Made by a program: the position numbers and the translations under genes | Notes under the pieces: model-generated | Seen by the model: only the letters and a program-made list of their open reading frames with translations | Told to the model about the DNA's origin: nothing | Databases searched by the model: none | Shown here: positions 9,146 to 59,584 of the stretch, in pieces | How positions within the stretch are numbered: the first letter of the stretch is position 1 | Layout of the letters: each line of letters starts with the position of its first letter | Assembly (NCBI GenBank): GCA_963697805.1 | Contig: CAVOPB010000003.1 | Span: 295,166 to 359,165 of the forward strand | Source of the DNA: an uncultured Solirubrobacterales bacterium | Lineage (GTDB): Bacteria; Actinomycetota; Thermoleophilia; Solirubrobacterales; 70-9 | Reading direction: 5' to 3' | DNA length: 64,000 nucleotides

Positions 9146-9781
9146 CTACTCGTTGGGGACCGCCGCGAGCGACTCCCAGAGGTAGAGCGAGGCGAGGCTG
9201 CGGTGGGGGCGCCAGGCCTCGCCGATCTCGATCACCTCGGTCGGCGCAGGCATCTCCTCGAGCCCGTACTCGATCTGGACCGCCTTGCGGATCCCGAGGT
9301 CGCCGCCGGAGAGGACATCGGGCCGTTCGAGGTGGAACAGGAGGAACATCTCTGCCGTCCACTGGCCGAGGCCGCGGACCGCGACGATCTCCGCGATCAC
9401 CTCCTCATCGCCGAGTTCGTCGAGGCGGTCGAGCTCGAGCTCGCCGGAGATCACGTGCGCGGCGAGGTCGCGGATGTACTCGACCTTGCGCCCGGAGAGG
9501 CCCGCGGCCCGCAGGTCCTCTTCGCTCCCCTCGAGCAGCTCCTCCGGCGAGGGGGTGCTGCCCCCGAACAGGTCGACGACCCGACCGTAGATCGTCCGCG
9601 CCGCTTTGGTCGAGAGCTGTTGGCCGACGATTGCCCGCAGCAGCGCTCCGTAGGCGTCGGGTGGCCGCTCCTCGCTTCGCCGCCGCAGCCGGGTCTCGAG
9701 GTCGATCTCGCCGACCCGCTCGATCAGCGCCGCCATCTCCGGCCCGGTTGCGGCCAGCGCCTTTCGGTCTGCCGCGCTCAC
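9146..9781 (-). CDS. HhH-GPD family DNA glycosylase (3-methyladenine glycosylase II-like)
   Basis: 211 aa. Motifs: IVGQQLSTKAARTIYGR, AAGLSGRKVEYIRDLA, VRGLGQWTAEMFLLF, GDLGIRKAV. Confidence 0.8.
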   Translation of the reverse strand: MSAADRKALAATGPEMAALIERVGEIDLETRLRRRSEERPPDAYGALLRAIVGQQLSTKAARTIYGRVVDLFGGSTPSPEELLEGSEEDLRAAGLSGRKVEYIRDLAAHVISGELELDRLDELGDEEVIAEIVAVRGLGQWTAEMFLLFHLERPDVLSGGDLGIRKAVQIEYGLEEMPAPTEVIEIGEAWRPHRSLASLYLWESLAAVPNE

Positions 9782-10587
9782 TTTCCACTCCAGCGCGGCC
9801 GCCGCTTCTCGGCAAATGCCTGGATCCCCTCGCGGAAGTCGTCCGAGCGGAAGCAGGACTCGCGAAGCGCAACCAGGTCGGCCTCCTGGCGCTCGCTGAG
9901 AGCGGGGTTGGCATTCAGGACCTCGATCGCCTGTTTGTTGCCGCGCATCGAGAGCGGCGCGTTGGCGGCGATCGCCGCCGCCAGCTCAACCCCGGCGCCC
10001 TCGAGATCCTCGTCGGGGAAGACCTCGTGGACGAGCCCGATCTGCTCGGCCCGGGCCGCGACGACGTTGCGCCCGGTCAGGAACAGCTCCTTGGTCCTCG
10101 CCAGGCCGATCGTGTCGAGGAACTTGCGCAGCCCGGTGTGGCCGTAGATCAGGCCGAGCTTGGCGGGGGGCATCCCGAGCTTCGCCCCCGCCGCGCAGAT
10201 TCGCATGTCGCAGGTGATCGCCAGCTCGAGGCCGCCGCCGAGGCAGTGCCCGTTGATCATCGCCACGATCGGCCAGGGGTGCGCCGCCAACGCCTCCATC
10301 GCCGCGTGGAACGGATGGGCGACGAGCAACTCGGCGTCGCGCTCGAAGGTCTGTTCGGGTATCGACCCGATGTCGTACCCGGCGGAGAAGACGGGCGGCG
10401 CGCCGGTGATCAGCACAGAGCGGTTCTCGATCCCGGAGTCGAGCCGCGGCAGGGTCTCGGCCAGGGTGTCGAGGATCTCGTGGTCGAGGGCGTTGCGACG
10501 CTCGGGGTTGGAGATCGTGATCCTGACGACCGCCTCGGCGGGGGAGTCGAGGATCAGCTTGCCGCCGGCGAGCTCCTCGGAGGCCAC
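9778..10587 (-). CDS. Enoyl-CoA hydratase/isomerase family protein
   Basis: 269 aa, crotonase fold. Motifs: NPERRNAL, VFSAGYDI, VAMINGHCLGGGLELA, AFAEKRRPRWSGK. Confidence 0.85.
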   Translation of the reverse strand: MASEELAGGKLILDSPAEAVVRITISNPERRNALDHEILDTLAETLPRLDSGIENRSVLITGAPPVFSAGYDIGSIPEQTFERDAELLVAHPFHAAMEALAAHPWPIVAMINGHCLGGGLELAITCDMRICAAGAKLGMPPAKLGLIYGHTGLRKFLDTIGLARTKELFLTGRNVVAARAEQIGLVHEVFPDEDLEGAGVELAAAIAANAPLSMRGNKQAIEVLNANPALSERQEADLVALRESCFRSDDFREGIQAFAEKRRPRWSGK

Positions 10588-10589
10588 TA

Positions 10590-10655
10590 CTACCTTTCGC
10601 GCTTCGCTCGCGGCGCGAAGAGCCAGGTATGCACGCTTGCTCGCTCCGCGCTCAC
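10590..10655 (-). repeat. Intercistronic cassette copy E1 (mini-ORF MSAERASVHTWLFAPRAKRER)
   Basis: Minus-strand sequence: GTGAGCGCGGAGCGAGCAAGCGTGCATACCTGGCTCTTCGCGCCGCGAGCGAAGCGCGAAAGGTAG. The GTG overlaps the TGA of the biotinyl-carrier gene. Its stop lies directly before the GTG of the enoyl-CoA hydratase gene. It is near-identical to the copy at 46523-46594. Confidence 0.7.
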
Positions 10656-10864
10656 TCGAGAACTACGAGGACGTCGCCTTCGCTGACCGACTGGCCCTCC
10701 TCGCAGCGAATCTCCTTGACGGTCCCGTCGTCCTCAGCCTCGACCGGGATCTCCATCTTCATCGACTCGAGGATGACGACGGTGTCCCCGTCCTCGACGG
10801 TGTCGCCGACCGCGACCTCGATTTTCCATACGTTGCCGGTGATGTGTGCCTCGATATCCGCCAT
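10652..10864 (-). CDS. Free-standing biotinyl/lipoyl carrier domain protein (about 70 aa)
   Basis: MADIEAHITGNVWKIEVAVGDTVEDGDTVVILESMKMEIPVEAEDDGTVKEIRCEEGQSVSEGDVLVVLE. It carries the biotin attachment motif (E)SMKME. Confidence 0.85.
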   Translation of the reverse strand: MADIEAHITGNVWKIEVAVGDTVEDGDTVVILESMKMEIPVEAEDDGTVKEIRCEEGQSVSEGDVLVVLE

Positions 10865-10884
10865 GGAGCGAGACAATATCCGCC

Positions 10885-15936: not shown

Positions 15937-16850
15937 CGGCTGCCGAGCTTCTCGTAAAAGCCGGGGTCGTGGCCCGGGGTGACGATCGCCGCCGGGAACT
16001 CGCGGCGGAACAGCCTCAGCTCCTGCAGCGAGCGGCGCCGGTTGTGGGCGTCGAAGGGGCGAGGCGACAGCGACCCGGAACCCTCGAGCTGTGCCTGGGT
16101 GTATGCGGCGTCACCGCCGATCACGAAGTCGCGGTCCCTGAGCCGGGCGATCACCGACATGTGGCCGGCGGAGTGGCCGGGGGTGAAGGCGAGCCGGACC
16201 GAGCCGTCGCCGAAGAGGTCGAAGGCGCGGCCGAAGGTCGCGTATGAGTCGATCCCCCCACGGTCGAAATCGACCGTGCGATAGTCGAACGCGAAGTCGT
16301 AGTGGAGCCGCCGGTAGCTGTTCAACGTCGGCCGTCCCCCCTCGGTCGCCTCGTCCCACTCGACCTCGCTGAGGATGAAGGTGGAGTTCGGGAACTCCGA
16401 GATCGCCGACGCGTGGTCGGCGTGGAGGTGGGTCATGACGACGATCGGGACCTCACCCGGCTCGAGCCCGCGCTTGCGGAGCTGTGCGGGTGCGTCGCCG
16501 TCGGCCTCGACGGAGGGTTTGAGGAAACGGGTGAGGGCGCGGCCGAAGTTCTCTTCGCCGTCGGTCGCGATCGAGGGGTGGAGGCCGGTGTCGACGAGGA
16601 TCGCGCCGGCGCTCGGGTGGCGGATCAGGAAGACCGGACAGGGCAGGGTGAGCGCGTCCTTGCCGCTGAGCATCGCCCACAGCAGGCGCGGCCCCATCAG
16701 CCGGCCGTCGGGACCCTCGATCCAGCGCCGGGGCTGCTCGACGGTTCCGGTGATGATCGGCTCGACCGAGACCGTCGCTCCGGGCGTGCCTCCGGAAAGC
16801 GGCTCGTGGAGCGGTTTTGCCTCCACCTGGACCTTCATCGAGGCGGACAT
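15927..16850 (-). CDS. MBL-fold metallo-hydrolase (lactonase-like)
   Basis: 307 aa. HxHxDH motif THLHADHAS, FTPGHSAGH, and a later TPGHD. Confidence 0.75.
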   Translation of the reverse strand: MSASMKVQVEAKPLHEPLSGGTPGATVSVEPIITGTVEQPRRWIEGPDGRLMGPRLLWAMLSGKDALTLPCPVFLIRHPSAGAILVDTGLHPSIATDGEENFGRALTRFLKPSVEADGDAPAQLRKRGLEPGEVPIVVMTHLHADHASAISEFPNSTFILSEVEWDEATEGGRPTLNSYRRLHYDFAFDYRTVDFDRGGIDSYATFGRAFDLFGDGSVRLAFTPGHSAGHMSVIARLRDRDFVIGGDAAYTQAQLEGSGSLSPRPFDAHNRRRSLQELRLFRREFPAAIVTPGHDPGFYEKLGSRYE

Positions 16851-16885
16851 TACCCCCAGGTATCCCGCCTATAGGCTGGGGATCG

Positions 16886-17731
16886 ATGGCTGAGAGCGCT
16901 CATTCGCGCATATTCAGGGACGGGCTTCTGGAGGGCCAGGTCTGTCTCGTGTCCGGCTCCGGCTCCGGCCTCGGCCGCGAGACTGCGCTTGAGCTGGCCC
17001 GGCTCGGGGCGGATGTGGTCGGGTGCGGCCGCCGCGCCGAGCCGCTGGCCGAGACCGGCGAGCTCGCCGACGGCCTGCCTGGGAGCTTCGAGCATGAGGC
17101 GATGGACATCCGCGACGAGGAGGCGGTGGAGCACCTGATCGGTGGCCTTCTGGCGCGCCACGGGAAGCTCGACGTCCTCGTCAACAATGCCGGTGGCCAG
17201 TTCCTGAGCCCGGCCGAGGCGATCAGCCCGAAGGGCTTTCGCACCGTCACCGAGCTGAATGTCCAGGGCACCTGGCTGATGACCCACGCGGCTGCGACCA
17301 AGGCCTTCATCCCGCAGGGCAGTGGCAAGGTGCTGAGCGTCACCCTCTCGCCGCACCATGGGATGCCGGGCATGGTCCACTCCGGCGCCGCCCGCGCCGC
17401 GGTCGAGAACATGATGCGCACCCTGGCGATCGAGTGGGCGCGGTTCGGGATCACGACCTGTGCCCTCGCCGCCGGCCAGTTCGCGACCGAGACCCTCCTG
17501 ACCAAGTATCCGAAGGTGGTCGTCGACAACCTCGAGCGCTCGATACCGATCGGCCGTGCCGGGCGATCCGAGGAGCTCGCCTGGCTAGTCGCCTACCTGG
17601 CCTCGCCCGCCGGCGACTTCATCTCCGGTACGACGATCACGATCGACGGCGCCCGCGACAACTGGGCCGGGCCGTGGCCGCCCGAGGCGATCGTCGGCGA
17701 GGGCGGCGAGCCGCCGGCGGAGGAGCGCTAG
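16886..17731 (+). CDS. SDR-family oxidoreductase
   Basis: Starts MAESAHSRIF at the in-frame ATG at 16886. Motifs: VSGSGSGLGRETA, NNAGG, SGAARAAVENM. Confidence 0.8.
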   Translation: MAESAHSRIFRDGLLEGQVCLVSGSGSGLGRETALELARLGADVVGCGRRAEPLAETGELADGLPGSFEHEAMDIRDEEAVEHLIGGLLARHGKLDVLVNNAGGQFLSPAEAISPKGFRTVTELNVQGTWLMTHAAATKAFIPQGSGKVLSVTLSPHHGMPGMVHSGAARAAVENMMRTLAIEWARFGITTCALAAGQFATETLLTKYPKVVVDNLERSIPIGRAGRSEELAWLVAYLASPAGDFISGTTITIDGARDNWAGPWPPEAIVGEGGEPPAEER

Positions 17732-25770: not shown

Positions 25771-26949
25771 TCACAGCCCGAGCTGTTTGCCCAGGATCTC
25801 CTTCATGATCTCGTCGGTTCCGCCGCCGATCGGGCCGAGGCGGGCGTCGCGGACCGCACGCTCGATCCCGTACTCGCGCATGTAGCCGTAGCCGCCGTGG
25901 ATCTGGAGGCACTCGTCGGCGATGTCGAGGACGCCGCGCTGGGTGATCAGCTTCGCCATCGTCACCTCCTTGATGCAGTCCTGGCCCTCGTGGAAGAGGC
26001 GCAGCGCGTTGTAGGTAATCGCGCGGGCGGCCTCGGCCAGGGTCGCCATCTCGGCGACCTTGTGGCGGACCGCCTGGAAGTTCCCGATCGGCCGGCCGAA
26101 CGCCCTGCGGTCGAGCGCGTAGGCGACGGTGGTCTCTATCAGCCTCTGCATCGCTCCGACCGCGCCGATCGCCATCAGCAGCCGCTCCCAGGCGAAGTTG
26201 AACATGATCAGCCTGAAGCCCTCGTTCTCGGAGCCGAGCAGGTTCTCGGCCGGGACTTCGACGTCGGTGAAGGAGAGCTCGCCGGTATCGGAGGAGTGCC
26301 AGCCGAGCTTCTCGAGCTTCGCCGAGACCTCGTAGCCGGGCATCTCGCTCTCGAGGACGAGGAACGAGATCCCGTGGTGACCGCCGTCCTGGGTCGTCTT
26401 GCAGGCGCAGACGAGGAAGTCGGCGCGGACGCCGTTGGTGATGAAGGTCTTGGCGCCGTTGACGACATAGCCGCCGTCGGTCCGCTCGGCGAAGGTCGAG
26501 ATCCCGGCGACGTCGGAGCCGGCGCCGGGCTCGGTGATCCCCAGCGCCCCGATCTTCTCGCCGGCGATCCCCGGCACCAGCCAGCGCTGCTTCTGCTCCT
26601 CGCTGCCGAAGTTGAAGATCGGCGGCATCGCGATCGAGGCGTGGGCGTTGAGCCCCGCCGCGACCCCGCCCGAGCCACCTGAGCGGGCGAGCTCCTCGAC
26701 CCAGATCGCGTCGTGGAGGTGGGTCCCGCCCTGGCCGCCGTAGCTCTCGGGGAACTTGAGGCCGAGGAAGCCGAGCTCGGCGCAGCGCCGGTAGAGCTCA
26801 CGCGGGAATTCGCGGGCGGCCTCCCACTCGTCGACATTGGGGGCGATCTCCTTCGAGACGAACCGCCTCACCGTCCCCCGCAACTCCTCGTGCTCGGAGT
26901 CAAACGGCGGCGGGACGGCTCTCACGCCCGTGTCCTTGACGACGGTCAT
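25771..26949 (-). CDS. Acyl-CoA dehydrogenase
   Basis: Starts MTVVKDTGVR at the ATG at 26949. Motifs: GALGITEPGAGSDVAG, FITNG, IHGGYGYMREYGIERAVRDARLGPIGGGTDEI. Confidence 0.9.
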   Translation of the reverse strand: MTVVKDTGVRAVPPPFDSEHEELRGTVRRFVSKEIAPNVDEWEAAREFPRELYRRCAELGFLGLKFPESYGGQGGTHLHDAIWVEELARSGGSGGVAAGLNAHASIAMPPIFNFGSEEQKQRWLVPGIAGEKIGALGITEPGAGSDVAGISTFAERTDGGYVVNGAKTFITNGVRADFLVCACKTTQDGGHHGISFLVLESEMPGYEVSAKLEKLGWHSSDTGELSFTDVEVPAENLLGSENEGFRLIMFNFAWERLLMAIGAVGAMQRLIETTVAYALDRRAFGRPIGNFQAVRHKVAEMATLAEAARAITYNALRLFHEGQDCIKEVTMAKLITQRGVLDIADECLQIHGGYGYMREYGIERAVRDARLGPIGGGTDEIMKEILGKQLGL

Positions 26950-29480: not shown

Positions 29481-30698
29481 CTACAGCCCGTAACTGCGGC
29501 CGATCACCTCGAGCATGATCTCGTCGGTGCCGGCGCCGATCCGGTTGAGGCGGACGTCGCGGTAGGCGCGCTCGATCTCGTACTCCTTCATGTAGCCGTA
29601 GCCGCCGTGGATCTGGATGCACTCGTCGGCGACCTCGCAGGCGATCCGCGAGGTGTAGAGCTTGCACTCGGAGATCTCGCGGACGGGGTACTCGCCGTTG
29701 GCGTAGCGCCAGGCGGTCGCGTAGGTGAACTGACGCGCGGCCTCGATCTTGGTCGCCATCTCGGCGAACTTGTGGCGGATCACCTGGAAGTTGCCGATCG
29801 AGCGGCCGAACGCCTTGCGCTCCTTCGCGTACTCGAGGGTGCGATCGAACATCCGCTGCGCGCCGGCGACGGCGCCGGCGCAGGCCACCATCCGCTCGCT
29901 CTGGAGCTCCCAGGCGATGTGGTAGAAGCCCTTGCCCTCCTCTCCGAGCAGGTTCGCGGCTGGGACGCGGACGTCCTCGAAGCTCAGTTCGGCGGTGTCG
30001 GAGGAGTGCATCCCCATCTTCTCGAGCTTGCGCGAGACGTTGAAGCCCGGAACCGGGTCGCCGTTGTCATCGCGGAGGTCGACGACCAGGAGGCTGATTC
30101 CCTCGTGTGCCTTCTCGGGGTCGGTCTTGACGACGAGGACGATGAAGTCCGCCCGGGCGCCGTTGGTGATGAACGTCTTCGAGCCGTTGACGACGAATTC
30201 GTCGCCGTCGCGGATCGCCTTGGTGCGGATCCCGGCGACGTCGGAGCCGGCCTCCGGCTCGGTGATCCCGAGGCAACCGATCTTCTTGCCTTCGATCGCC
30301 GGCGGCATGTAGCGCTGCTTGAGGTCGTCCGTGCCGAGCATCTCGATCGGCGGCAGGACCATGTCGGTGTGGACGATGAAGCCCATGTTCAGCCCGCCGG
30401 AGCCGGAGTAGCTGAGGCACTCGGCCCGGACCATCGAGTAGTAGTAGTCGCCGCCCTGGCCGCCGTACTGCTCGGGGAAGCAGAGGCCGAGGAAGCCGAG
30501 CTCGCCCGCCCGCGTCATCACCTCGGTGGGCCAGGTTGTCTCCTCCCACTCGTTGCGATGGGGGAACAGCTCCTTTTCAACCCACGACTGCATCGACTCG
30601 CGCAGGTCTTCGTGCTCCTGCGTGAAGATCATGTGCTTGCGGTCGGCGCCGTGGTCGGGCTTGATGACCTTGGAGCCGTTGGTCGTCGCGGTCGTCAC
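29481..30698 (-). CDS. Acyl-CoA dehydrogenase
   Basis: Motifs: GCLGITEPEAGSDVAG, FITNG, IHGGYGYMKEYEIERAYRDVRLNRIGAGTDEI. I chose the GTG at 30698, which is preceded by GAGGGGAG. The ATG at 30632 and the track start at 30740 are alternatives. Confidence 0.85.
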   Translation of the reverse strand: MTTATTNGSKVIKPDHGADRKHMIFTQEHEDLRESMQSWVEKELFPHRNEWEETTWPTEVMTRAGELGFLGLCFPEQYGGQGGDYYYSMVRAECLSYSGSGGLNMGFIVHTDMVLPPIEMLGTDDLKQRYMPPAIEGKKIGCLGITEPEAGSDVAGIRTKAIRDGDEFVVNGSKTFITNGARADFIVLVVKTDPEKAHEGISLLVVDLRDDNGDPVPGFNVSRKLEKMGMHSSDTAELSFEDVRVPAANLLGEEGKGFYHIAWELQSERMVACAGAVAGAQRMFDRTLEYAKERKAFGRSIGNFQVIRHKFAEMATKIEAARQFTYATAWRYANGEYPVREISECKLYTSRIACEVADECIQIHGGYGYMKEYEIERAYRDVRLNRIGAGTDEIMLEVIGRSYGL

Positions 30699-32026: not shown

Positions 32027-33644
32027 GGGGAAAAACGTTAGAGATGGACGAGGAGAGAGATTGAGCGAGAACGACCACAAGCTGCCGGGGACTGCTTCTC
32101 TGGGAGATCTCACCGATCAGCTGCACGAGGCGCGCCAGAGGGCACAACTCGGTGGCGGCGAGGAGAAGATCGCCAAGCAGCATGAGCGCGGCAAGCTGAC
32201 CGCGCGCGAGCGGATCGACCTCCTCGTCGATGTGGGGACCTTCGTCGAGCTCGGGATCCACGGCCGCCCGCATTTCGCCCAGCGGGCGATGGACGGGGTC
32301 GAGGCGCCGGCCGACGGCGTGATCACCGGCTGGGGCGACGTCGACGGCCGGCCGACCTGCATCGCCGCCTACGACTTCACCGTGATGGCGGGCTCGATGG
32401 GGATGACCGGGGAGCTCAAGGTGACTCGGCTGCGGGAGATGGCGCTGCAGAAGCGGATGCCCTTCATCTGGCTGCTCGACTCGGCCGGGGCGCGGATCCA
32501 GGAGGCCGCAGGGTCGCTCTTCGCCGGCTCCGGGCACCTCTTCCGCGAGGAGGTCGAAATGTCGGGCGTGATCCCGATGGTGGCGGCGATGATGGGCCCC
32601 TGCGCGGCCGGCACCGCCTACATCCCGGCCCTCTCGGACTTCGTCCCGATGGTCTCGGGCCAGGGCGCGATGGCGCTCGCCGGCCCGCACCTGACCAAAG
32701 CGGTCACCGGCGAGGAGATCTCGATGGAGGAGCTGGGCGGCGCCAAGGTCCACTGCCGCAAGTCGGGAGTGGGGGACCTGGAGGTGCGCGACGACGAGGA
32801 ATGCATCGCCAAGGTCAGGGCCTACCTCTCCTACTTCCCGCCCAACTGCGAGCAGAAGCCGCCGCTGGTCGAGACCTCCGACCCCGACGACCGTCGCTCC
32901 GAGAAGCTGATGGAGATCGTCCCCGAGTCCTCGCGCCAGCCCTACGACATGTACGAGGTGATCGCCGAGATCGTCGATGACGGCGAGTGGTTCGACATCA
33001 AGCCGAAATTCGCGAAAAGCCTGATCACATGCTTCGCGCGCTTCGGGGGCCAGCCGGTTGGGATCGTCGCCAACCAGCCGAAGCATCTGGCCGGGATCCT
33101 CGACAACGACTCATCCGACAAGGCGGCGCGCTTCATCAACCTCTGCGACGCCTTCAACATCCCGCTGGTCTTCCTCCAGGACGTGCCCGGCTTCATGGTC
33201 GGCTCGAAGGTCGAGCACGCCGGGATCATCCGCCATGGGGCGAAGATGCTCTACGCGGTCAGCCGCGCGACGGTGCCGAAGGTGACGGTGATCGTCCGCA
33301 AGGCCTATGGCGCCGGCTACTACGTGATGTGCGGCAAGGCCTACGAGCCCGACGTGATCGTCGCCTGGCCGGGGGCCGAGATCTCGGTGATGGGGGCCGA
33401 GGGTGCGGTCAACATCATCGGCCGCTCGGCGATCGAGGCCTCTGATGACCCGGAGGGGACGCGCGAGGCGATGCTCGACGCGGTCCGCCAGCAGATCGAC
33501 CCCTACATCGCCGCCGGCAACGCGGTCATCGACGACATCATCGACCCGCGGGAGACGCGGCCGACGATCGTCAGGGCGCTGCGGATGGCGCGGACCAAGC
33601 ACGTCGAGAAGCCGGCCAAACGCCACGGGGTGATGCCGGTATGA
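32025..33644 (+). CDS. Acyl-CoA carboxylase carboxyltransferase (beta) subunit
   Basis: 539 aa. Motifs: GGGEEKIAKQHERGKLTARERIDLLVD, DFTVMAGSMG, LDSAGARIQE, NIPLVFLQDVPGFMVG, GAKMLYAV. Confidence 0.9.
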   Translation: MGKNVRDGRGERLSENDHKLPGTASLGDLTDQLHEARQRAQLGGGEEKIAKQHERGKLTARERIDLLVDVGTFVELGIHGRPHFAQRAMDGVEAPADGVITGWGDVDGRPTCIAAYDFTVMAGSMGMTGELKVTRLREMALQKRMPFIWLLDSAGARIQEAAGSLFAGSGHLFREEVEMSGVIPMVAAMMGPCAAGTAYIPALSDFVPMVSGQGAMALAGPHLTKAVTGEEISMEELGGAKVHCRKSGVGDLEVRDDEECIAKVRAYLSYFPPNCEQKPPLVETSDPDDRRSEKLMEIVPESSRQPYDMYEVIAEIVDDGEWFDIKPKFAKSLITCFARFGGQPVGIVANQPKHLAGILDNDSSDKAARFINLCDAFNIPLVFLQDVPGFMVGSKVEHAGIIRHGAKMLYAVSRATVPKVTVIVRKAYGAGYYVMCGKAYEPDVIVAWPGAEISVMGAEGAVNIIGRSAIEASDDPEGTREAMLDAVRQQIDPYIAAGNAVIDDIIDPRETRPTIVRALRMARTKHVEKPAKRHGVMPV

Positions 33645-33964
33645 CCGAGGTCCTGCTCAAGAACGAGAAGGAGCAGTTCACCGGCGTGCTCGTCTTCGAC
33701 GGGACGGTGTTCGAGGCGTTCGGGTTCGAGATCGGTGGCTCCTTCGGAAGCTTCGTCCGGATCCCGGTCGCGATGATGGAGAGCGCCGCCGCCTCTTTCG
33801 ACTCGGGGTTGCTGAAGACTCCGCGGCTACAGATCGTCGGCCGCGAGGACCTCGGCCTCGGCGACCTGCTGCTGCCGTTCGATCCCGACCCCTCCGAGCA
33901 GGCTGCGATCGCCCAGCTTGTCGAGGAGATCCAGAAGGCGATCGACGAGAGGGGGGGAGCATGA
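33641..33964 (+). CDS. Hypothetical protein (107 aa)
   Basis: ATGA overlap with the carboxyltransferase stop. Codon usage is coding-like. I recognise no family. Confidence 0.5.
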   Translation: MTEVLLKNEKEQFTGVLVFDGTVFEAFGFEIGGSFGSFVRIPVAMMESAAASFDSGLLKTPRLQIVGREDLGLGDLLLPFDPDPSEQAAIAQLVEEIQKAIDERGGA

Positions 33965-34032
33965 GCGCGGCAGCGACCGAGTGTCCATATCTGATCCTTC
34001 ACGAGGGAGCGAAGCGCGAGGTTTTGCAATGA
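33961..34032 (+). repeat. Intercistronic cassette copy E2 (mini-ORF MSAAATECPYLILHEGAKREVLQ)
   Basis: ATGAGCGCGGCAGCGACCGAG...GGAGCGAAGCGCGAGGTTTTGCAATGA. The ATG overlaps the upstream TGA and the TGA overlaps the downstream ATG (34029). Both ends match copies E1 and E3. Confidence 0.65.
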
Positions 34033-38286: not shown

Positions 38287-39318
38287 ATGAACTTGACGAT
38301 TGGTAGGCGGGCGGTTCCGTTGGCCCTGATCGGACTGACAGCTGCGGTGGCTGTGCTGATTCTTGCAATGGGTCCCGGTCTCGCCCAGGCCGACCCTGGC
38401 CATGGTTCGGCAAAGAAGTCGAAGAAGGGCAAGAAGGGACCGAGGGGGGCGAAGGGGCCGAAGGGCGACCAGGGGCCGCCGGGGCCGCAGGGGCCGATCG
38501 GCCTGCCCGGGCCGAAAGGCGACCCCGGCCCAGCCGGTGCTGAAGGCCCCCGCGGGGCGACGGGATCCACCGGCCCGGCGGGGACGCCAGGAGCAAACGG
38601 CGCAACCGGCGCAACCGGGGCGACAGGGACTTCAGGGACTCCAGGGGCTGCAGGCGCGACCGGAGCGACCGGCCCGGCGGGGCCCACTGGCCCGAGTGGG
38701 CCTGCGGGTGGCCCGACGGGCGAAACAGGCCGCCACCGGGGCTACTGGGGCGACGGGGGACGCTGGTGCGACCGGGGACGTTGGCGCGACTGGCGCGACC
38801 GGTGCCACGGGTCCATCAGGTCCGGAAGGTCCAACCGGAGCCGAAGGGGCAACCGGAGCCACCGGTGCGACCGGAGAGGCGGGCGGAGCCGGAGACATCG
38901 GCGCCACTGGCCCAACTGGGCCGAGCGGCCCAACTGGGCCAACTGGCTCGACCGGAGACACCGGAGCGACTGGTGACAACGGCGCAACCGGTGACAGCGG
39001 CGCCACGGGTGGAGCTGGGCCAACCGGCGATACGGGCGCGACCGGCGCCACCGGTCCGGCCGCGAGCCAGATTGTATGGGGATCGGCGACCGAAGCACGA
39101 TCAATCGGCGGACCTGTCCCGCGGAAACCGTCCTCTTGGGTGGTGGGTTCGAGCTCGTCAATGAAGGTGGAAAGGCCCAACCGGAAGCGGCAGACGACAT
39201 CTCCGCGAGCCAATCCAGACTGACGACGGACCCGGTTGGGAAGCCACGGTGCTTCAGCAGAACCGGCGCGGACACCGAAGTCATCGCCTACGCGGTCTGC
39301 TCGGCTCCAACTCCCTAG
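38287..39318 (+). pseudogene. Collagen-like (Gly-X-Y) secreted protein, frameshifted paralogue of 39458..40453
   Basis: Signal peptide [35 protein letters not shown], then Gly-X-Y repeats in frame 1 up to about 38730. The Gly-X-Y periodicity continues only in frame 2 (38732 to about 39076), and the C-terminal domain resumes in frame 1 (39079-39318). Read as a single frame, it stops at 38974-38976. Confidence 0.6.
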
Positions 39319-39338
39319 GAGCCGACATAAGTGCGTGC

Positions 39339-39369
39339 TCGAGCCCCCGGCCTGAGGCCGGGGGCTCGA
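39339..39369 (+). terminator. Strong hairpin (14-bp perfect stem TCGAGCCCCCGGCC / GGCCGGGGGCTCGA, loop TGA)
   Basis: Read directly from the sequence, 20 nt downstream of the stop of the first collagen-like gene. There is no T-run. Confidence 0.5.
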
Positions 39370-39457
39370 CGCGTGGGCCGGCATAGGTCAGATGTCCAAA
39401 TTGGCCGAATGGTCAATTCAGTGAATCCGCCAGTGATCCGAACTGGAGTGGGCGGAC

Positions 39458-40453
<996 letters not shown>

Positions 40454-46097: not shown

Positions 46098-46526
46098 ATG
46101 TCCGGCCCGGGCGTCACACCTCCAACACCACCCGACGAGGACAGGTCGGTCGGGGAGCTGATCTTCGACGTCTCGGGAAGGGTCTCGACCCTGATCCGCG
46201 AGGAGGTCGAGCTCGCCAAGACCGAGATCAGCGAGAAAGTCGGCAAGATCCTGCGCGGATCGGCCGTCGGGGTCGCCGCCGGGGTGTTCGCCTTCCTCGC
46301 TCTGATCCTCGTCATGGAGGGCTTCGCCTGGCTGCTGAACGAAGAGGTCTTCGACGGCAAGGCCTGGCCCGGGTTCTTCATCGAGGCAGCGATCTTCCTC
46401 CTCGTCGCCGCCGGTGCCGGCTACTTCGCCTATCGCTCGGTCCAGGCCGGCGCGCCGCCGCTCCCCGAGCAGGCGATCGAAGAGGCGAAGCTGACCCGGG
46501 AGATGCTCGAAAAGGAGGAGCCATGA
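46098..46526 (+). CDS. Actinobacterial holin-X (Phage_holin_3_6)-like membrane protein
   Basis: MSGPGVTPPTPPDEDRSVGELIFDVSGRVSTLIREEVELAKTEISEKV..., followed by two TM spans. Confidence 0.65.
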   Translation: MSGPGVTPPTPPDEDRSVGELIFDVSGRVSTLIREEVELAKTEISEKVGKILRGSAVGVAAGVFAFLALILVMEGFAWLLNEEVFDGKAWPGFFIEAAIFLLVAAGAGYFAYRSVQAGAPPLPEQAIEEAKLTREMLEKEEP

Positions 46527-46594
46527 GCGCGGAGCGAGCAAGCGTCGCAATCTGGTTCTCCGCGCCGCGAGCGAAGCGCGAGGTATTCCAATGA
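46523..46594 (+). repeat. Intercistronic cassette copy E3 (mini-ORF MSAERASVAIWFSAPRAKREVFQ)
   Basis: ATGAGCGCGGAGCGAGCAAGCGTCGCAATCTGGTTCTCCGCGCCGCGAGCGAAGCGCGAGGTATTCCAATGA. The ATG overlaps the holin-like TGA and the TGA overlaps the DUF3618 ATG (46591). AAAGGAGGAG lies upstream. Confidence 0.7.

Positions 46595-57388: not shown

Positions 57389-59584
<2,196 letters not shown>

Follow-up and report, generated by a model that had tools for sequence, protein, structure and literature searches.

A dispersed, probably mobile and MIRU-like repeat of about 68 nt at gene starts in uncultured Solirubrobacterales

Introduction

An operon of an uncultured Solirubrobacterales bacterium carries, between the genes for a biotinyl carrier and an enoyl-CoA hydratase, a spacer that reads as one small open reading frame. 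It starts on the stop codon of the first gene and runs into the start codon of the second. What kind of sequence is this, and how could it come to lie so exactly between two genes? We analyzed it in the context of the window, which is the whole 64,000-nt stretch of contig CAVOPB010000003.1 described above, and of related DNA from other genomes. Our reading, to which we assign a probability of roughly three in four, is that the spacer (copy E1) is one copy of a dispersed, probably mobile repeat of about 68 nt that resembles the MIRUs of mycobacteria and preserves translational coupling.

MIRUs are the main documented case of a start-codon repeat hidden in translational coupling. To find it again in an apparently independent family, from a remote actinobacterial order on which little work has been done, would show the strategy to be general. 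There is also a practical side, since these cassettes are unannotated mini-cistrons and can mislead gene callers on start codons in Solirubrobacterales MAGs.

Results and Discussion

Copy E1 and its flanking genes

The minus-strand reading of window positions 10655-10585 is GTGAGCGCGGAGCGAGCAAGCGTGCATACCTGGCTCTTCGCGCCGCGAGCGAAGCGCGAAAGGTAGTAGTG. The features of the locus are as follows.

10590-10655, minus strand: element copy E1, a GTG..TAG mini-ORF of 21 codons plus stop that fills the BCCP-ECH spacer
10652-10876, minus strand: upstream gene, a 74-aa biotinyl/lipoyl carrier (BCCP; PF00364 Biotin_lipoyl, E 3.4e-20), whose TGA overlaps the GTG of E1
9778-10587, minus strand: downstream gene, an enoyl-CoA hydratase (ECH; PF00378 ECH_1, E 1.8e-51) of 269 aa with a GTG start
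10633-10653, minus strand: 5' conserved block GAGCGCGGAGCGAGCAAGCGT, which starts within the GTGA stop/start overlap; exact, two copies in the window
10597-10617, minus strand: 3' conserved block CGCGCCGCGAGCGAAGCGCGA; exact, two copies in the window
10585-10597, minus strand: 3' tail of E1 with an SD-like AAAGG, TAG TAG and the GTG start of the enoyl-CoA hydratase gene

The GTG of the mini-ORF (10655-10653) overlaps the TGA (10654-10652) with which the 74-aa ORF upstream ends. Its 21 codons give the peptide VSAERASVHTWLFAPRAKRER when the GTG is taken as Met. It ends in tandem TAG TAG (10592-10587), and the final G is the first base of the downstream GTG (10587-10585). The right junction uses TAGTAGTG. 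The mini-ORF spans the distance from the BCCP stop to the ECH start, so that the whole 64-nt spacer between the two genes is taken up by the element. A preliminary description of this DNA, made from the letters alone, had proposed this occupancy, the overlaps at both ends and the identities of the two neighbors. The coordinates and the Pfam matches agree with it throughout, and what it said about the sequence of E1 holds with one clarification, namely that the element reads on the minus strand.

Copies E2 and E3 in the window

The same description had called E1 almost identical to a sequence at 46523-46594. We confirmed this by alignment: E1 and this second copy, E2, form the longest inverted repeat of the window (58 nt, 88% identity). 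The 21-nt 5' block matches exactly at 10633-10653 and 46525-46545 and nowhere else in the window, and the 21-nt 3' block does so only at 10597-10617 and 46561-46581. For each block, 0 of 100 shuffles gave two matches. A third copy, E3, was first found by short-word BLAST and then confirmed by a covariance model; it is more diverged than E1 and E2.

46523-46594, plus strand: element copy E2, a 23-codon mini-ORF with an ATGA overlap at both ends, between Holin-X and DUF3618 genes; 87.2 bits
33961-34033, plus strand: element copy E3, of a +1/-1 subfamily, a 23-codon mini-ORF with an ATGA overlap at both ends; 76.1 bits

E1 itself scores 87.4 bits with model R1 over 10583-10655. The covariance model yields exactly these three copies in the window, and the next best score is 14 bits. 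E3 has a 107-aa ORF upstream and a BKACE gene downstream, and the genes flanking E1, E2 and E3 are unrelated to one another.

The window is 87% identical at the DNA level, over several kb, to the Solirubrobacterales MAG chromosome OY969094.1 (L112; L-numbers are the labels of the compared loci). When window 33641-34032 is set against L112:2562-2685, this closest syntenic MAG is found without the 107-aa ORF (function unassigned) and without E3; an unrelated 123-nt spacer precedes its BKACE gene where the window has E3. Since one entire ORF is present in the window only, the locus is uninformative as an empty allele of E3 and was dropped.

Extent of the family

We scanned one genome per prokaryotic species with the pattern TGAGCGCGG-N35-50-GAGCGAAGCGCGA. 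At least 117 stretches match, so the element is present at other loci and in other genomes. Among the matches listed, 113 lie in MAGs labelled Solirubrobacterales or closely allied and 4 are evident chance matches; several of these MAGs each hold at least 6-11 copies. The hosts are uncultured soil Solirubrobacterales. The proposal that E1 belongs to a family of repeated intercistronic cassettes is borne out. Chance or an assembly artefact as the source of the family was excluded by the statistics and by independent assemblies.

The repeat unit is 68-69 nt long. It forms tandem arrays with a period of 68 or 69 nt, with three units in L005 and in L081, four in L073 and two in L099. The number of units varies among orthologues (three in L081, one in L106 and in L029). 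Downstream genes sampled at random encode an ABC ATPase, YGGT, lipoyl synthase, HisB, MotB/OmpA, PAP2, a cytochrome c and a histidine kinase, and are functionally unrelated.

Viral contigs searched with the element gave no match. Rfam 15 gave no match in the window at the gathering threshold and, near the element, only chance snoRNA matches (E > 1); assignment to a curated Rfam 15 family was rejected for want of a gathering-score match. Our literature search found no description of Solirubrobacterales repeats, and the family appears to be undescribed.

Junction geometry and the two settings

The anatomy of the element was counted in 121 distinct copies. Directly 5' of the opening TGA stand 79 A, 27 G, 10 T and 5 C, which gives RTGA in 106/121. 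The mini-ORF is 21-25 codons long in 90/121 and stops on TGA in 111/121. The long ORF downstream starts at -1 of this stop, as an NTGA overlap, in 63/121. By codon-bias periodicity, the upstream gene is in register with the opening TGA in 67/119 cases and the downstream gene with the overlapping start in 71/85. The downstream gene has the sense of the element in 74/85 cases and the reverse in 4/85. The stop/start geometry noted earlier, in which the mini-ORF begins on the upstream stop codon and its own stop abuts or overlaps the downstream start, is thus a family-wide property of more than 120 copies. All three window copies fit it. An SD-like GAGG or AAGG stands about 7 nt upstream of the second RTGA of the element; SD-like 4-mers 4-16 nt 5' of the coupled start are present in 38 of 63 copies, compared with 134 of 286 ordinary 4-nt overlaps in the same DNA.

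The sequences 5' of the element point to another location as well. In 26 copies the distance from the end of a TANNNT box to the start codon of the element is 6-8 nt, and each other spacing is found in at most 3 copies. Among 36 copies that have no upstream co-directional gene, 18 have a TANNNT ending 5-9 nt before the start. This is the spacing expected if the A or G that opens the start codon is also the first transcribed base. The box position suggests that about one quarter of the copies lie at leaderless starts, 6-8 nt after TANNNT. At such promoter-proximal loci the element would be a leaderless mini-cistron.

The element occurs in two settings, the 4-nt RTGA stop/start overlap within operons and the start of an apparently leaderless gene at its putative transcription start. 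It opens with RTGA and usually closes with RTGA. A ribosome that ends the upstream gene, or that starts on a leaderless 5' AUG, would re-initiate on the RTG of the element, read about 21-24 codons of arbitrary peptide and terminate on the downstream start codon. The mini-ORF would thus be translated, translational coupling would survive, and the insertion would cost little. An in-frame TGA is present at codon 11 in 13/121 copies and the right junction is an exact NTGA in only about half of the copies, which argues that passage of ribosomes is not universal.

Presence, absence and decay at orthologous sites

A metagenome scan with the hydratase of the window gave 80 orthologous BCCP-ECH loci (76-83% amino-acid identity). 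The covariance model places the element in 2 of these 80, and 78 are without it. The copy in L136 is at the same junction as E1; that in L151 is at another junction of the operon. The empty alleles have the carrier TGA and the hydratase GTG overlapping as GAGTGA (L122, L146, L137, L123, L169 and others). Loci L126 and L130 have GTGAG followed directly by GCGGGAACCGCTGTGA. This equals the L136 copy minus 48 internal bases, and we therefore regard them as decay remnants. In a rough NJ tree, L136, L126 and L130 form one clade nested among empty alleles and the window is on a separate branch. The BCCP-ECH junction may therefore have received the element on more than one occasion. The direction of change, gain versus loss, is taken from this rough tree only.

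By synteny, the compared loci include about 16 sites where some orthologues are filled and others empty. In the empty alleles the start codon lies at the position of the RTG of the element, both at ATGA overlaps and at leaderless starts. Within operons, the two genes of an empty allele overlap as ATGA (L007 vs L066; L052 vs L117). Next to promoters, the same TANNNT box is followed at 7 nt by the start codon of the empty allele (L016 vs L021 and L051; L075 vs L081; L093 vs L034; also L104 vs L090, and L082 vs L028 and L057). In other remnants, a deletion runs from the GCGCG string of one end block to that of the other (L012 vs L033; L113:3568). The deletion end points differ between remnants, which argues for decay products and not for site-specific excision. 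Many copies are kept at orthologous sites across species-level MAGs (e.g. L020/L028/L057 and L048/L059/L079/L089), a retention that would also fit a function for the host.

The same BCCP/ECH junction carries a different, 72-nt cassette in the six metagenome loci L145, L165, L176, L178, L184 and L187 (e.g. L165:2425-2500). The cassette reads GTGAAAGCACAAATCGAC..GTCGATTTGTGCGGGAACG..TTCGATGA and includes a 12-bp inverted repeat; its ORF of 25 codons overlaps its neighbors as GTGA at the start and as ATGA at the end. The design is that of E1 and the sequence is unrelated. Among the DNA compared, it occurs at the BCCP/ECH locus only.

The encoded peptide

The preliminary description read E1 as a 21-aa peptide. 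This reading is correct for E1, but the peptide is not a conserved product. The 86 copies of standard spacing encode 71 distinct peptides, and 9 of them have an in-frame stop in the loop (..ATC TGA TTC..). Entropy at codon positions 1, 2 and 3 is 0.62, 0.50 and 0.45. It is highest at the first position and lowest at the third, without any third-position excess, which is the reverse of what a protein under purifying selection would show. In the E3-type subfamily, one base is inserted after GCGCGG (+1) and one is lost before GGGAGCG (-1). These indels keep the nucleotides, change 12 residues and restore the frame, so that what looks maintained is the start-to-stop reading frame as such and not the peptide.

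A functional small protein, or a regulatory leader peptide (MSAERASVHIWFFAPRAKRE..) that acts by arrest or attenuation, would require that the amino-acid sequence matters. Such a product would fit the ATG or GTG start in 88% of copies, the narrow length of 21-25 codons, the recurrent N-terminal MSAE and C-terminal AKRE, and the restored frame of the E3 subfamily. The constant MSA and AKRE residues, however, sit in blocks that were fixed by the search pattern, and where bases covary the residues change too (A to P together with R to G). The peptides match no family in Pfam or NCBIfam, and the unrelated downstream genes define no single pathway. With the diversity, the internal stops, the entropy profile and the frameshifted subfamily also against it, a functional peptide is unlikely, and we give it very little credence.

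Secondary structure

Covariation locates a central stem and its loop at the following positions of E1 (alignment A2).

10634-10640, minus strand: 5' arm of the covarying central stem (GC..GCG, AA internal loop); pairs (17,57), (21,56), (25,51), (26,50) and (27,49)
10610-10617, minus strand: 3' arm of the covarying central stem (CGC..GC)
10618-10633, minus strand: 16-nt loop, consensus U(G/C)CAUAUCUGGUUCUU; UGCAUACCUGGCUCUU in E1

The central stem, which closes the conserved 16-nt loop, has 62 double-change cells, a number reached in 0/500 column shuffles; slid controls give 6-8. GC, CG and AU changes occur at three pairs, and the whole helix is replaced in single copies (ACCCGCA/TGCGGGT in L016, CCUG/CAGG in L064). 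The 8-bp stem of the preliminary description, GCGCGGAG/CUUCGCGC, can indeed be drawn and is pairable in 93.5% of cells, but it is unsupported as the actual fold. It shows 0 double changes, its 5' arm being fixed by the search pattern. It competes for the same 3' bases with the central stem, which does covary. Pairing of the central CUUCGCGC with the 3' GCGCGAGG, which would hide the SD, was rejected as it has no covariation.

RNA folding showed no excess stability over dinucleotide shuffles (z = +1.04 for E1, -0.35 for E2, mean +0.52 over 117 copies). DNA folding was no better than shuffles on either strand (z about 0). RNAalifold extends the central stem to a rod with GGA/GAA and GA/GA internal loops at -17.0 kcal/mol, compared with an MFE of -20.1. 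The outer helices of this rod fall within the search-anchored blocks; 13 unanchored copies show one compensatory change, several U.G pairs and several breaks there. Counting G.U against A.C as a strand test gave 4 vs 2. Judged from the aligned copies, what evolves under constraint at the nucleic-acid level is the stem-loop, which covaries, together with both direct-like end blocks. These parts would be recognized by the machinery that spreads the element or by an RNA- or DNA-binding factor.

A GC-GNA-GC heptamer is present in both end blocks of all family members (in E1, GCGGAGC at 10639-10645 and GCGAAGC at 10600-10606, both minus strand). The GC-GNA-GC motif forms unusually stable DNA mini-hairpins. 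Standard DNA folding, as above, shows no excess stability.

The structure raises the possibility that the element is a cis-acting RNA of the host, such as a site for protein binding, for processing or for stability, or an insulator of translation, with the overlapping ORF as a side effect. It would be retained for its regulating or stabilizing effect on the transcripts that bear it. The compensatory central stem with its conserved loop would fit this, as would the rod-like fold with its internal loops, the sense orientation to the downstream gene and the retention at orthologous sites. Such an RNA is, however, matched by no Rfam family and has no thermodynamic signal. It would have to serve unrelated downstream genes, including ECH and BKACE, and yet be absent from 78/80 orthologous operons. 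Arrays, remnants and precise start/stop overlaps are left unexplained by an RNA motif alone. We consider a host RNA quite improbable.

Spread of the element

The element has no terminal inverted repeats; its end blocks are direct-like (GAGCGCGGAGCGA / GAGCGAAGCGCGA). RTGA was considered as a target-site duplication and rejected, the left and right R being uncorrelated (Fisher p = 0.40). At the right junction, RTGAGCGCGG suggested that duplication or homology extends further, but this is ordinary gene-start context: RTGA is followed by GC in 38% of element junctions and in 36% of the 286 ordinary overlaps. In that 36% of ordinary overlaps, from the compared loci, the junction reads RTGAGC (Met-Ser), often RTGAGCGC, so that the 5' end of the element mimics the commonest gene-start context. 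A MITE, which requires terminal inverted repeats and a target-site duplication, was likewise rejected. The 1.29 Mb of compared DNA revealed no mobilizing enzyme, with neither a transposase bounded by the two blocks nor a long autonomous element.

REP/BIME sequences with RAYT and the palindromes derived from IS200/IS605 are also short, abundant intergenic repeats without mobility genes of their own, and REP/BIMEs have conserved small hairpins with compensatory change. REPs, however, are untranslated, are mostly found 3' of genes, and consist of an imperfect palindrome in which GTAG is conserved. The present element is not palindromic overall, sits exactly on start codons and carries an ORF, and no link to RAYT or TnpA was found. 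REP/BIME was rejected as its class, with no GTAG head, no overall palindrome, folding z of about 0 to +0.5 and no bounded long element.

One speculative route is that an HUH-type enzyme acting in trans (IS200/IS605 TnpA-like or RAYT-like) would recognize small hairpins and move the element as single-stranded DNA. The element would insert next to the fixed tetranucleotide RTGA without terminal inverted repeats or target duplication. The lack of both of these signatures is in line with such a route, and so are the left boundary fixed at RTGA, the covarying internal stem and the heptamers in both end blocks, which match the known mini-hairpin motif. But no transposase gene lies between two blocks in the DNA compared, DNA folding is unremarkable on both strands, the G.U and A.C counts do not tell the folding strand, and the remnants speak for decay instead of excision. 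We regard the HUH route as unlikely.

Comparison with MIRUs and other translated repeats

Our preferred reading is that of a MIRU-like repeat. The many near-identical copies, their placement at start codons, a mini-ORF that is indifferent to sequence and keeps its frame, the arrays, the decay and the unrelated genes together indicate, as far as the compared loci tell, a dispersed repeat that is polymorphic for gain and loss. The idea of a cassette with a coupled mini-ORF was essentially right. With a design that would keep translation flowing, these features led us to file the element as working like a MIRU.

According to a review (PMC12548453), MIRUs insert at start codons and their ORF is coupled at -4. 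As summarized there from Supply et al. (1997), they are short dispersed repeats of tens of bases, co-oriented with the flanking genes. Their internal ORF starts on the upstream stop and stops on the downstream start with -4 spacing, and they form tandem arrays of variable copy number and show apparent start-codon insertion with little effect on expression (PMC12548453). All of the features that we looked for are found in our element: a short, co-oriented, dispersed repeat, an overlapping ORF, variable arrays, and presence or absence at start codons. The likeness is one of design, by description. The host differs, being Thermoleophilia/Solirubrobacterales and not Mycobacterium, both within Actinomycetota. 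Unlike MIRUs, about one quarter of the copies lie at putative leaderless transcription starts. To our knowledge, a covarying internal stem-loop has not been described for MIRUs.

Persistence by staying in frame with translation is shared with the Rickettsia palindromic elements (RPEs). These are selfish repeats that insert inside protein-coding genes, where they survive in frame with translation and add residues. The present element differs from RPEs in being a separate mini-cistron between cistrons.

Coupled uORFs that deliver ribosomes (Shell et al. 2015, as cited in PMC12548453) are comparable: the start codon of the main gene is where a short ORF, leaderless or coupled, comes to its end, and the peptide is irrelevant. 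They are locus-specific, whereas here one cassette occupies more than 100 unrelated loci and its presence is polymorphic. A primer derived from an M. intracellulare repeat, CGACGATGCAGAGCGAAGCGATG, given in PMC10117815, shares the 10-mer GAGCGAAGCG with the 3' block of the element, the only common string seen. This match is too short to claim homology with mycobacterial repeats.

The many clean filled, empty and remnant alleles, the covarying core and the copies at leaderless starts make three questions directly testable. These are how the element is targeted to start codons, whether ribosomes pass it by termination and re-initiation, and what it does to leaderless genes.

We also put forward a broader and tentative idea. 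Solirubrobacterales might carry a class of start-codon-seeking, "translation-transparent" mobile cassettes with at least two unrelated families, the present element and the 72-nt hairpin cassette. The folded core would be recognized by a recombination system. Insertion at leaderless start codons could turn leaderless genes into genes translated by coupling to a leaderless mini-ORF, and the cassettes would then be genome-wide modifiers of initiation and not mere passengers.

Other features of the window

A fourth bridging mini-ORF lies at window 16850-16903 (minus strand; ATGAGCGCTCTCAGCCATCGATCCCCAGCCTATAGGCGGGATACCTGGGGGTAAtg, 17 codons). It has ATGA on the upstream stop and TAATG on the downstream start, contains a CCCCAG..CTGGGG hairpin, and is single copy in all DNA compared. 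Long runs of GGN-rich repeats with a 9-nt period, coding for collagen-like Gly-X-Y, are found at 38446-40198 and 58910-59166. An array of repeats of about 156 nt, the consensus of which resembles FG-GAP/VCBS-type repeats, occupies 57600-58576. Two segments of about 1 kb, at 25789-26779 and 29499-30504, are 3.7 kb apart and 72-79% identical; they are presumably paralogous genes.
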